Below are positions 28,763 through 31,518 of a stretch of 37,482 bases of DNA, piece by piece. The DNA is taken from IMG/VR virus record IMGVR_UViG_2565956717_000009, positions 1 to 37,482 of that record, one strand, 5' to 3'. This DNA is from a virus (Duplodnaviria > Heunggongvirae > Uroviricota > Caudoviricetes). Within the stretch, counting starts at the first letter, position 1. Each line of letters begins with the position of its first letter. A program made the position numbers and the translations under genes. The notes under the pieces were generated by a model. That model saw only the letters and a program-made list of their open reading frames with translations. It was not told where the DNA came from and searched no databases.

Positions 28763-28777
28763 TCGCTTTGTCAGCGA
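28763..28777 (-). promoter_or_regulatory. nutR boxB-like hairpin (P22 type)
   Basis: Minus strand UCGCUGACAAAGCGA, same GACAA loop as nutL boxB; between cro and cII. Confidence 0.4.
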
Positions 28778-28815
28778 CGTAGGACGAATGTCCATTGTGA
28801 AAATAGCGGTGTTAC

Positions 28816-29016
28816 TTATGCAGTTGTTTTTTTGTTACTTGGGAAGGGCTTTACCTCTTCCGCATAAACGCTTCCATCAGCGTTTATAGTTAAAAAAATA
28901 TTTCGGCCTGCATGAATGGCCTTGTTGATCGCGCTTTGATATACACCGAGATCTTTAGCTGTCTTGGTTTGCCCAAAGCGCATTGCATAATCTTTCAGGG
29001 TTATGCGTTGTTCCAT
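28816..29016 (-). CDS. cro: Cro repressor (lambda-type)
   Basis: 66 aa; [38 protein letters not shown]... matches recalled lambda Cro. Confidence 0.9.
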
Positions 29017-29042
29017 ACAACCTCCTTAGTACATGCAACCAT

Positions 29043-29106
29043 TATCACCGCTAGAGGTAAAATAGTCAACACGCACGGTGTTAGATATTTATCCCTTGCG
29101 GTGATA
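29043..29106. promoter_or_regulatory. Operators OR1-OR2-OR3 with divergent PR and PRM (lambda-type)
   Basis: OR1 29043-29059 tatcaccgctagaggta, OR2 29067-29083 caacacgcacggtgtta, OR3 29090-29106 tatcccttgcggtgata; PR -35 TTGACT and -10 GATAAT on the minus strand. Confidence 0.8.
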
Positions 29107-29116
29107 GATTTAACGT

Positions 29117-29830
29117 ATGAGCGCAAAAAAGAAACCATTGACACAAGAGCAGCTTGAGGACGCACGTCGCCTTAAAGCTATTTATGAAAAAAAGAAAAAT
29201 GAACTTGGCTTATCCCAGGAATCTGTCGCAGACAAGATGGGGATGGGACAGTCAGGCGTTGGTGCTTTATTTAATGGCATCAATGCATTAAATGCTTATA
29301 ACGCCGCATTGCTTGCAAAAATTCTCAACGTTAGCGTTGAAGAATTTAGCCCTTCAATCGCCAGAGAAATCTACGAGATGTATGAAGCGGTTAGTATGCA
29401 GCCGTCACTTAGAAGTGAGTATGAGTACCCTGTTTTTTCTCATGTTCAGGCCGGGATGTTCTCGCCTGAGCTTAGAACCTTTACCAAAGGTGATGCGGAG
29501 AGATGGGTCAGCACAACCAAAAAAGCCAGTGATTCTGCATTCTGGCTTGAGGTTGAAGGTAATTCCATGACCGCGCCAACAGGATCCAAACCTAGTTTTC
29601 CTGACGGGATGTTAATTCTGGTTGACCCTGAGCAGGCTGTTGAGCCAGGTGATTTCTGCATAGCCAGACTTGGGGGTGATGAGTTTACCTTCAAGAAACT
29701 GATCAGGGATAGCGGTCAGGTGTTTTTACAACCACTAAACCCACAGTACCCAATGATCCCATGCAATGAGAGTTGTTCCGTTGTGGGGAAAGTTATCGCC
29801 AGCCAGTGGCCTGAAGAGACGTTTGGATAA
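29117..29830 (+). CDS. cI: CI repressor (lambda-type, LexA-like autocleaving)
   Basis: 237 aa; near-identical to recalled lambda cI along its length. Confidence 0.95.
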
Positions 29831-29837
29831 CACGTAA

Positions 29838-30275
29838 ATGATTAAAGAACGTATTTCTTATATCATTCCGATTGCGATGGATGAAGGCAACCCAGTAACT
29901 CCAGTTCTTATCTATGAAATGGATAAAGACTCCCATGAAGTGGATCTATCATTTGGCGCTTTTTTTATCGGCCTTAAGGCTACAAAAAAATATTCCATAG
30001 GCATTGAGGTTTTCAATGCTCAAGAAATACCGATACCAATTGACACAAAACTGTACTCCAACCATAAGTTTTTTACGGTAGCAGAAGCCAACGATGGAGA
30101 AACCATCGTATCAACTTCTATGAGAATTAACTTCCCAAGGGTGAAAATTATCAAGCCTGGGATATTCGAAGTTAGAGCATCACTGGTTAATCCTGATAAA
30201 GGCGAAGTAATTGATGTAAAAAGTTCGTTTTTTGACGTGAAGATAACAGGATCGGTTCGCGATGAGTTTAGATAA
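29838..30275 (+). CDS. Hypothetical protein, first gene of the cI-downstream (rex-position) cassette
   Basis: 145 aa, starts 7 nt after the cI stop; visibly A+T-rich; no recognised motif. Confidence 0.6.
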   Translation: MIKERISYIIPIAMDEGNPVTPVLIYEMDKDSHEVDLSFGAFFIGLKATKKYSIGIEVFNAQEIPIPIDTKLYSNHKFFTVAEANDGETIVSTSMRINFPRVKIIKPGIFEVRASLVNPDKGEVIDVKSSFFDVKITGSVRDEFR

Positions 30276-30633
30276 CAAGGTTGCTCAGCTTCGTCCAAAT
30301 CAAAACATATCTCGCCCAATTGGACACTATTCCACTGATGATGCATACTCACGGCATGCTGGAGGAAACGGCGGAGGTAACATGCTTGAGGCTAGAGTTG
30401 CAAAGCTAGAGTCTGATGTTGAATACATCAAGCGCGATCTCGCTGAAGTAAAGTCAGATATAAAATCTGTAGATTCTCGTCTGTCAGGTATTGAGACAAG
30501 CATTAGCTCAGCAAAAATCACCATCAAGGCATCTGCGGTCGTTGTCAGTTTCGTGTTCGCATTTTGCGCCTACATTTTTGGAAGTTATGTTTCCAAAATC
30601 CTTGATGCCTTAAACGGACTCGTTCTTAAGTAA
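30262..30633 (+). CDS. XhlA-like tail-anchored membrane protein (coiled coil + C-terminal TM), second gene of the rex-position cassette
   Basis: 123 aa; Gly-rich N-terminus, heptad-like LEARVAKLESDVEYIKRDLAEVKSDIKSVDSRL, C-terminal hydrophobic ASAVVVSFVFAFCAYIFGSYV; 14-nt overlap with upstream gene. Confidence 0.6.
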   Translation: MSLDNKVAQLRPNQNISRPIGHYSTDDAYSRHAGGNGGGNMLEARVAKLESDVEYIKRDLAEVKSDIKSVDSRLSGIETSISSAKITIKASAVVVSFVFAFCAYIFGSYVSKILDALNGLVLK

Positions 30634-30638
30634 CACAC

Positions 30639-30666
30639 AACCCGGCCTCAGCGCCGGGTTTTCTTT
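30639..30666 (+). terminator. t_imm-like rho-independent terminator ending the cI operon
   Basis: aacccggc-ctcagc-gccgggtt (8-bp stem) followed by ttctttg, 6 nt after the stop at 30633. Confidence 0.65.
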
Positions 30667-30823
30667 GCCTCACGATCCCCTTCACCCAATAACACATAAC
30701 CAATTGTATTTATTTGAAAATTAATAGATACAACTCACTAAACATCGCAATTCAGATCTCTCGATCACCTCCCAAGCCACACACCCCTGCAAAAAAATAA
30801 ATCTATATAAAAAACATACAGAT

Positions 30824-30886
30824 AACCATCTGCGGTGATAAATTATCTCTGGCGGTGTTGACATAAATACCACTGGCGGTGATACT
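30824..30886 (+). promoter_or_regulatory. Operators OL3-OL2-OL1 with PL (lambda-type)
   Basis: aaccatctgcggtgata (30824-30840), tatctctggcggtgttg (30844-30860), taccactggcggtgata (30868-30884); -35 TTGACA 30858-30863, -10 GATACT 30881-30886. Confidence 0.8.
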
Positions 30887-30954
30887 AAACACATCAGCAG
30901 GACGCACTACTCACCAGGGCGGTGAATATACAACGATTCGAATATGAATCTACG

Positions 30955-30969
30955 GCGCTGACAAAGCGC
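30955..30969 (+). promoter_or_regulatory. nutL boxB (P22 type)
   Basis: GCGCTGACAAAGCGC matches recalled P22 boxB; lies in the PL leader upstream of N. Confidence 0.5.
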
Positions 30970-31134
30970 AATAACCAAAGTGAACTTTGGGGTGTGGTGA
31001 AGGGTTCATGGACGGGAATATGTCGCACGTAAAGCGGCGAGGCCTGCGGGACTATTGCCGAATTGAAGTAGGCCGAAACAGGTCGAAATGGGTCTCCCAC
31101 CTACCACACCACCAAAGTTCATCAGGAGGTCTAT

Positions 31135-31518
31135 ATGACACGCAGAACTCAGTTCAAAGGCAATTCACGTTCTCGTCGTCGTGAGCGTTTAAAGGCAAAG
31201 GCATTAGCTAACGGCGTACTGGCCCGCGAAGAAGCAATAAGTTCAGAAGTATTACACCGCCCTACTCTAAGCAGAGCGCAGATTCAGGCTAAAGGTACTC
31301 ACGAAACGCCTGAGCGCATAGAAGACGCTAAGCCAATTAAGTTCATGGCACAGGACGTGATCTGGCAACAGAAAGAATACAGACGCAATCTGGAGAGAGC
31401 GGCCATTGTGTACGCGAATGAGTTTGGACATAAGCAACCAGAAACTGGTGTATGTCTTCCAAATGTAGCTCTTTACGCAGCAGGCTACCGGAAATCAAAA
31501 CAACTGACGGCGAGGTAA
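31135..31518 (+). CDS. N: Antiterminator N (P22 gp24-like)
   Basis: 127 aa; Arg-rich N-terminal motif GNSRSRRRERLKAKA; C-terminus ...LPNVALYAAGYRKSKQLTAR resembles recalled P22 gp24; GGAGG RBS. Confidence 0.75.
   Translation: MTRRTQFKGNSRSRRRERLKAKALANGVLAREEAISSEVLHRPTLSRAQIQAKGTHETPERIEDAKPIKFMAQDVIWQQKEYRRNLERAAIVYANEFGHKQPETGVCLPNVALYAAGYRKSKQLTAR

Follow-up and report, generated by a model that had tools for sequence, protein, structure and literature searches.

A lambda-type immunity cassette between H-19B/HK97-type nut sites and N in the genome of a P22-like temperate coliphage

The virus record IMGVR_UViG_2565956717_000009 of IMG/VR is a P22-like (CUS-3/HK620/Kapi1-like) temperate coliphage or prophage, and we call the whole 37,482-nucleotide stretch analysed here (positions 1 to 37,482 of that record) the window. 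Its early control region, between 28763 and 31518, is very probably a standard lambdoid mosaic, in which a lambda immunity cassette lies between nut and N flanks of the H-19B/933W/HK97 type, as it does in phages HK97, mEp234 and HK106. The original prediction, made from the letters alone, had described a circuit of lambda-type cI, cro, operators and late antiterminator Q joined to a P22-type N and P22-type nut sites, and had proposed that N and its RNA sites moved together as a unit into a lambda background. Much of that description stands, while the proposed movement does not, because N and its sites flank the immunity region and the rest of the window is not lambda-specific.

The lambda character of the immunity region was read correctly from the start. 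Its elements are as follows.

28816-29016, minus strand: cro, lambda type, with 65/66 residues identical to lambda Cro (98.5%)
29117-29830, plus strand: cI repressor, lambda/HK97 type, 99.2% identical to lambda cI and 100% identical to HK97 cI
29043-29059, 29067-29083 and 29090-29106: operators OR1, OR2 and OR3, of which OR2 and OR3 equal those of lambda and OR1 has one substitution
-35 at 29069 and -10 ending at 29041, minus strand: PR, from a consensus scan
30639-30660, plus strand: Timm-like intrinsic terminator ending the cI operon, from a terminator scan; Timm is annotated in the homologous mEp234 record
30824-30840, 30844-30860 and 30868-30884, plus strand: operators OL3, OL2 and OL1, all three equal to those of lambda
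TTGACA at 30858 and GATACT ending at 30886, plus strand: PL, from a promoter scan

Five of the six 17-bp lambda operators are thus present unchanged (OL1, OL2, OL3, OR2 and OR3). The sixth, OR1 (TACCTCTAGCGGTGATA), carries a G-to-A change relative to lambda that also occurs in HK97 and mEp234, and it therefore marks the wild HK97-type form of lambda immunity. By blastn, the only lambda DNA matches in this region are 28802-29826 (97.6%) and 30639-30925 (89%). From cI, Cro and the operators we infer that the immunity specificity would be that of lambda (imm-lambda).

The cassette spans approximately 2.1 kb, from ~28816-28826 (the cro stop) to ~30892-30908 (the start of the PL transcript), and each end coincides with a short conserved patch.

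~28816-28826, minus strand: right-hand junction at the cro stop codon, where lambda identity ends and H-19B identity begins at CTGCATAA
30892-30908, plus strand: left-hand junction at the conserved PL-transcript start CATCAGCAGGACGCACT, where lambda identity stops and 100% H-19B identity starts

Fourteen nucleotides of the left-hand patch (30892-30905) do not vary among the window, lambda, H-19B and P22 and recur in phage 21 and VT2-Sakai, whereas GCATAA at the end of cro is common to the window, lambda and H-19B. Outward from these patches, the PL transcript from the conserved CATCAGCAGGACGC and the PR transcript from CTGCATAA through nutR both match H-19B base-for-base. Comparison of the interval between PL and nutL, which had been suggested as a check, therefore places the change from lambda to H-19B identity at the conserved start of the PL transcript.

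Beyond the left-hand junction come nutL and N, and beyond the right-hand one nutR and cII, with the immunity region between the two sets. Thus, the simplest exchanged unit is the ~2.1-kb lambda cassette, and had N, nutL and nutR moved as a unit, the intervening immunity region would have been carried along. A cassette of this extent would comprise cro, OR1-3, PR/PRM, cI, two accessory genes, Timm, OL1-3 and PL, and the module around it would comprise nutL, a structured leader and N on the left, and nutR and cII on the right. One double crossover at the two short conserved patches could then swap immunity while N and both cognate nut sites stay in place.

The flanks carry two nut sites, one on each early transcript.

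30955-30969, plus strand: nutL boxB, GCGCU-GACAA-AGCGC (GCGCTGACAAAGCGC), from sequence reading, hairpin scan and fold
30935-30950, plus strand: nutL spacer hairpin, GAUUC-GAAUAU-GAAUC, predicted in the minimum-energy fold and identical in H-19B
30903-30911, plus strand: weak putative nutL boxA, CGCACTACT, labelled 'putative nutL boxA' in EF120460
28763-28777, minus strand: nutR boxB, UCGCU-GACAA-AGCGA (TCGCTGACAAAGCGA, the reverse complement of the plus strand), from sequence reading, hairpin scan and fold
28782-28793, minus strand: nutR spacer hairpin, GGAC-AUUC-GUCC, predicted in the minimum-energy fold and identical in H-19B
28800-28808, minus strand: nutR boxA-like element CGCTATTTT, with two mismatches to the canonical CGCTCTTTA

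Both GACAA-loop boxB hairpins had been located accurately, and both fall on the strands of their early transcripts, nutL boxB 69 nt downstream of the PL -10 hexamer and nutR boxB 39 nt downstream of the cro stop codon. In folds, each nut site has a spacer hairpin directly upstream, followed by the boxB. No other hairpin with a GACAA loop on a 5-bp stem occurs in the window. A third GACAA hairpin, at 15564-15576, has a stem of just 4 bp. In mononucleotide shuffles, TGACAAA with four further stem pairs arises at a rate of 0.02 per window, and any GACAA loop on a 4-bp stem at 0.32 per window. The hairpin scan found no boxB hairpin with a lambda-type GA[AG][AG]A loop near PL or PR. Rfam, which has no curated nut or boxB family, gave nothing in the window at gathering thresholds.

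The designation of these sites as P22-type holds for the boxB loops and for one complete hairpin. Direct comparison with the P22 genome (NC_002371) shows the same 15-mer in P22 nutL boxB as in the window; the P22 nutR boxB (CCGCCGACAACGCGG) has the same loop as its counterpart here on a different stem. In PDB 1A4T, the complex of the P22 N peptide, the RNA has this same nutL 15-mer as its sequence, as PMC11480772 quotes it. The remainder of each site departs from P22, in which the canonical CGCTCTTTA stands 11-13 nt upstream of both boxBs without a spacer hairpin. By contrast, the boxBs of both nut sites are identical in H-19B, HK97 and mEp234, and that of nutR is so annotated in EF120460.

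A search for boxA near each boxB succeeded in part. At nutR, CGCTATTTT sits 22 nt upstream of boxB with the spacer hairpin intervening. The same sequence is present in H-19B, which rules out a new boxA mutation in the window; HK97 and mEp234 carry CGCTCTTTT. At nutL, no match to the canonical boxA with at most two mismatches lies between PL and boxB, and CGCACTACT is the nearest sequence. An exact boxA core (GCTCTTTA) at 31468-31475 on the plus strand, inside N, was considered as a third nut site and rejected, as no boxB follows it; it falls in the codons of the conserved N motif VALYA. The window holds two exact GCTCTTTA matches on both strands together, close to the chance level of ~1 estimated by hand, not computed, for an 8-mer. 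Farther downstream, a CCCCCT...AGGGGG hairpin at ~31867-31887 has a 9-nt loop (GACAAAATA) and is not boxB-like.

The N protein itself tells a similar story.

31135-31518, plus strand: N antiterminator of 127 aa, H-19B/933W/HK97 type, from identity to phage N proteins and from Pfam family PF25694

Several Stx1a/Stx2 phages encode this same protein (100% identity); the N proteins of HK97, mEp234 and EDL933-Stx share 99.2% identity with it, and that of H-19B 98.4%. Alignment with lambda, P22 and phage 21 N, the comparison proposed originally, places P22 gp24 nearest (41% identity by MAFFT) and gives 23% for lambda N and 22% for phage 21 N, so lambda N is not the best match. BLASTP aligns only the last 30 residues with gp24 (21/30 identical, 70%, E = 1e-10) and detects no similarity to it in the middle of N (residues ~30-100); the match to lambda N is weak and limited to arginine-rich sequence (E = 0.012). 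The two proteins also differ in length, at 127 aa for window N and 100 aa for gp24.

Three features tie N to gp24. Its arginine-rich motif (ARM), read from the sequence as 12-RSRRRER-18, resembles the P22 ARM. In the MAFFT alignment, the C-terminus LPxVALYAAGxRKSKQxTAR is common to N of the window, HK97, H-19B, epsilon34, VT2-Sakai and P22, whereas lambda and phage 21 N end in xGRQKIKxxSxPLI. Finally, N reaches 58.5 bits against PF25694 ('N_peptide', gathering cutoff 27.9), matching positions 6-100 of the 100 in the profile; gp24 reaches 152 bits, the 16.4 bits of lambda N are below threshold, and window N has no Pfam match to PF11438, the lambda N36 ARM family. A search of PDB sequences with N for the P22 N-peptide entry returned a chance match only (E = 1.5), the 1A4T peptide being too short. 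Judged by sequence, N is an H-19B/933W/HK97-type N within the P22 gp24 family and not P22 gp24 itself, so that 'P22-type' is apt for its ARM, C-terminus and family and misleading for the protein as a whole. We suggest that it be annotated as 'H-19B/HK97-type N (P22 gp24 family)' and not as 'P22 N'.

These observations bear directly on where the P22 resemblance came from. If the N gene and its two nut sites had entered a lambda genome in a single import from P22, or from a phage close to it, the shared nutL boxB, the P22-like ARM and C-terminus of N and the P22-like virion genes of the window would all be expected. However, a blastn comparison with the P22 early region at word size 11 turns up no matching P22 DNA in 30900-31520 (N, leader and nutL) or in 28700-28815 (nutR), N has 41% identity to gp24 against 98-100% to H-19B and HK97 N, and boxA and the spacers are unlike those of P22. 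Such a unit would also have been non-contiguous, with the immunity region between nutL/N and nutR, and apart from the cassette and a Q shared with P22 there is no lambda background for it to have entered. We regard this history as very improbable. An unrelated N/nut system that arrived at the GACAA loop by convergence is equally hard to credit. N and gp24 fall in one Pfam family along the full profile, their 20-residue C-termini are nearly identical and their ARMs can be aligned, epsilon34 (76%) and Sakai (58%) bridge the sequences as intermediates, and the leader architecture and conserved PL-transcript start are common to both; all of this outweighs the short 15-nt length of boxB and the dissimilar middle of N, which would otherwise suit independent origins.

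Least probable of all, to the point that we give it almost no weight, is that the circuit is a decayed and non-functional remnant in a cryptic prophage. Near-identical blocks do occur in bacterial chromosomes and the nutR boxA is off consensus, but that boxA variant is the one in functional H-19B, inducible Stx phages encode an N with 100% identity to that of the window, the open reading frames (ORFs) of N, cI, cro, cII and Q are all intact, and a full set of P22-like virion genes is encoded. The circuit looks functional, and the mosaic of a lambda cassette between H-19B/HK97-type flanks remains by far the best account. Since the P22 resemblance is confined to boxB, the ARM and the C-terminus, it points to old common ancestry and not to recent transfer; on these comparisons, N and its boxB are anciently related to P22 gp24 and its boxB and were not recently imported from P22.

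Some considerations count against this account. The direction of exchange (cassette into flanks, or flanks around cassette) cannot be proved from one sequence, and the direction we favour follows from topology and parsimony. The case that N binds boxB and antiterminates, and that immunity is that of lambda, draws on how nearly identical these parts are to those of phages already studied. In addition, nutL lacks a recognisable boxA, leaving its NusB/S10 requirement uncertain. H-19B N is reported to need NusA, and reportedly does not need NusB/S10 or boxA, which would agree with the weakness of the boxA elements in the window.

If the parts act as their relatives do, CI and Cro of lambda specificity would control PL and PR, and the nascent PL and PR transcripts would each fold a boxB with a GACAA pentaloop. 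The N ARM RSRRRER (residues 12-18) would bind the GACAA loop and, with NusA and NusG, the C-terminal domain of N (101-127) would contact and modify RNA polymerase. The modified polymerase would then read through the Rho-dependent tR1, the terminator near 32073 and later terminators. In H-19B N, whose mechanism has been analysed biochemically, the ARM 12-RSRRRER-18 is required for antitermination at nutR/tR1 with NusA and NusG, residues 101-127 form the RNA polymerase-binding domain, and nutR RNA has two hairpins (PMC3526286). As the cassette sits between the antiterminator gene and its two cognate RNA sites, immunity specificity and antitermination specificity reassort independently.

Between nutL and the region downstream of N, the PL transcript carries further structured elements.

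30980-31121, plus strand: long stem of the N leader, closing a domain of ~115 nt (minimum free energy -72.2 kcal/mol, z = -3.9)
31124-31129, plus strand: Shine-Dalgarno sequence of N, AGGAGG, just downstream of the leader stem
32073-32094, plus strand: intrinsic terminator downstream of N (tL-like), from a terminator scan

The arms of the leader stem are conserved or compensated across H-19B, epsilon34, VT2-Sakai, P22, lambda and phage 21 (seven leaders, compared by eye), and its interior differs among lambdoid leaders, including H-19B. This stem probably corresponds to the one that RNase III processes in the leader of lambda N. The terminator at 32073-32094 is a likely target of N antitermination; HK97 and H-19B share 98-99% identity with the window in this region, where a putative terminator is annotated in HK97. 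Two stretches downstream of N on the plus strand, 31908-31965 and 32014-32071, match P22 DNA near ral/sieB and upstream of gene 17 (98% over 58 nt and 80% over 61 nt), and are isolated mosaic joints in the PL operon.

The wider genome gives little sign of lambda. On sequence comparison, nothing in the window outside the cassette is lambda-specific, and Q is shared with P22.

28379-28678, minus strand: cII, HK97/H-19B type (Pfam Phage_CII, 5.5e-35)
21986-22609, minus strand: Q late antiterminator, of the type common to lambda and P22 (PF03589)

The cII product is 86.9% identical to that of HK97, 81.8% to that of H-19B and 39.4% to that of lambda. The flank between cro and cII is H-19B-like at boxA and at GAGTCCC after boxB, and HK97-like at other variable sites; overall blastn identity of the right flank is higher to HK97 (97.7%) than to H-19B (93.3%). 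Q, originally read as lambda-type, is 99.0% identical to lambda Q, but it is also 97.1% identical to P22 gp23, and lambda Q and gp23 are themselves 97.1% identical. Q is therefore not diagnostic of a lambda background. Downstream of it, 21560-21990 on the minus strand is a late promoter (PR')/qut segment common to lambda and P22, and the terminator after the late promoter (AAAGCCCTGAGTT...CTCGGGGCTTTTTGCG) matches P22 tR' and not that of lambda. The full set of virion genes is P22-like, of the CUS-3/HK620/Kapi1 kind, and the replication functions are those also seen in HK97, an initiator like P22 gp18 together with a helicase of the DnaB type.

Within the gp24/H-19B N family, the ARM and the boxB loop appear to vary together. 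In the window, H-19B and HK97, the N ARM NSRSRRRERLKAKAL goes with GACAA pentaloop boxBs, whereas epsilon34 (ARM SAAGRRRERRAAL) and VT2-Sakai (ARM TAASRRRARRANL) have a GAAA tetraloop in both boxBs, on the same or similar stems and with the same nutR spacer hairpin as the window. At nutR, for example, TCGCT-GAAA-AGCGA stands against TCGCT-GACAA-AGCGA in the window, a one-base loop indel that co-varies with the ARM. We tentatively suggest, with rather more doubt than conviction, that the family holds a natural series of ARM/boxB-loop specificities; were this so, it would offer a minimal natural system for dissecting how the ARM reads the extruded loop base. Because the window and Salmonella phage P22 have an identical nutL boxB, N of the window might also act at the P22 nut sites, and gp24 at those of the window.

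Two overlapping ORFs occupy the position of rexA/rexB, which are absent from the window.

29838-30275 and 30262-30633, plus strand: accessory ORFs at the rexA/rexB position (phrog_5893 and phrog_6136)

They encode 145 aa and 123 aa, the latter with a coiled coil and a C-terminal hydrophobic segment. Their position upstream of Timm and downstream of cI would place them on the cI transcript of a lysogen. Neither has a Pfam match above cutoff, and PADLOC returned only a weak CorA-like match for the 123-aa ORF (E=0.0037) and nothing for the 145-aa ORF. Lambda, HK97 and mEp234 have no counterpart of either; both ORFs are found in 9 Escherichia coli genomes. We consider them candidates for prophage exclusion or defence genes.

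The hybrid arrangement is already known and common. The 181-nt junction from OL1 to beyond nutL boxB is present, at ≥80% coverage, in 111/5426 complete E. coli genomes, and the whole 2.8-kb block recurs at 99.8% identity in E. coli NCCP 13717 and at 99.1-99.2% in enteropathogenic E. coli (EPEC) E2348/69. In NCCP 13717 (NZ_CP115984, 1568780-1589600), the block lies in a prophage adjoining dsdC/torI, with lambda-type O, P and ren and another PL operon, and its N is labelled 'transcriptional antitermination N peptide' in RefSeq. Its position there, beside a different (lambda O/P-type) replication module, shows that the block reassorts with its flanks. Within the collection of papers searched, none named HK97, H-19B and P22 N together, or H-19B, 933W, HK97 and nutL together. 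Sequences and annotations of this hybrid date back to 2000-2007, and the present case makes no open question testable; its value lies mainly in being a clean textbook case of lambdoid modular exchange, with a cassette bounded by universally conserved patches.

Among known systems, lambda shares PL and PR, which are identical, along with cI, Cro, the operators and Q, but lambda N belongs to a different Pfam family and its boxB loops are GAAGA/GAAAA in place of GACAA. P22 shares membership of PF25694, the nutL 15-mer, the GACAA pentaloop, the N C-terminus and a related ARM, and differs in the layout of its nut sites. The H-19B/933W-type system of Stx phages matches the antitermination module most fully, with N at 98.4-100% identity and with nutL and nutR identical to those of the window, including spacer hairpins and boxA, whereas the cI, cro and operators of H-19B are its own and unlike those found here.

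The closest relatives are three wild phages whose immunity is of lambda specificity, HK97 (GenBank AF069529), mEp234 (EF120460) and HK106 (EF120461). All three have the same architecture, with lambda-type cro/OR/cI and OL/PL between H-19B-type nutR-cII and nutL-N. HK97 and mEp234 are 97.7% identical to the window across cII-cro-cI and across Timm-PL-nutL-N, and both carry the junction; HK106 is also ~98% identical through both segments. Lambda-type oL1-3, oR1-3, pL and pR and the boxA and boxB of nutL and nutR are annotated at homologous positions in EF120460. According to the citing passage in PMC11893012, the immunity-region records EF120460 and EF120461 belong to Degnan et al. 2007. The differences lie elsewhere: the rex position holds gp48/gp49 in HK97, hicAB and one ORF in mEp234, and two other ORFs in the window, and this shared control region serves a P22-like podovirus here and an HK97-like siphovirus there.

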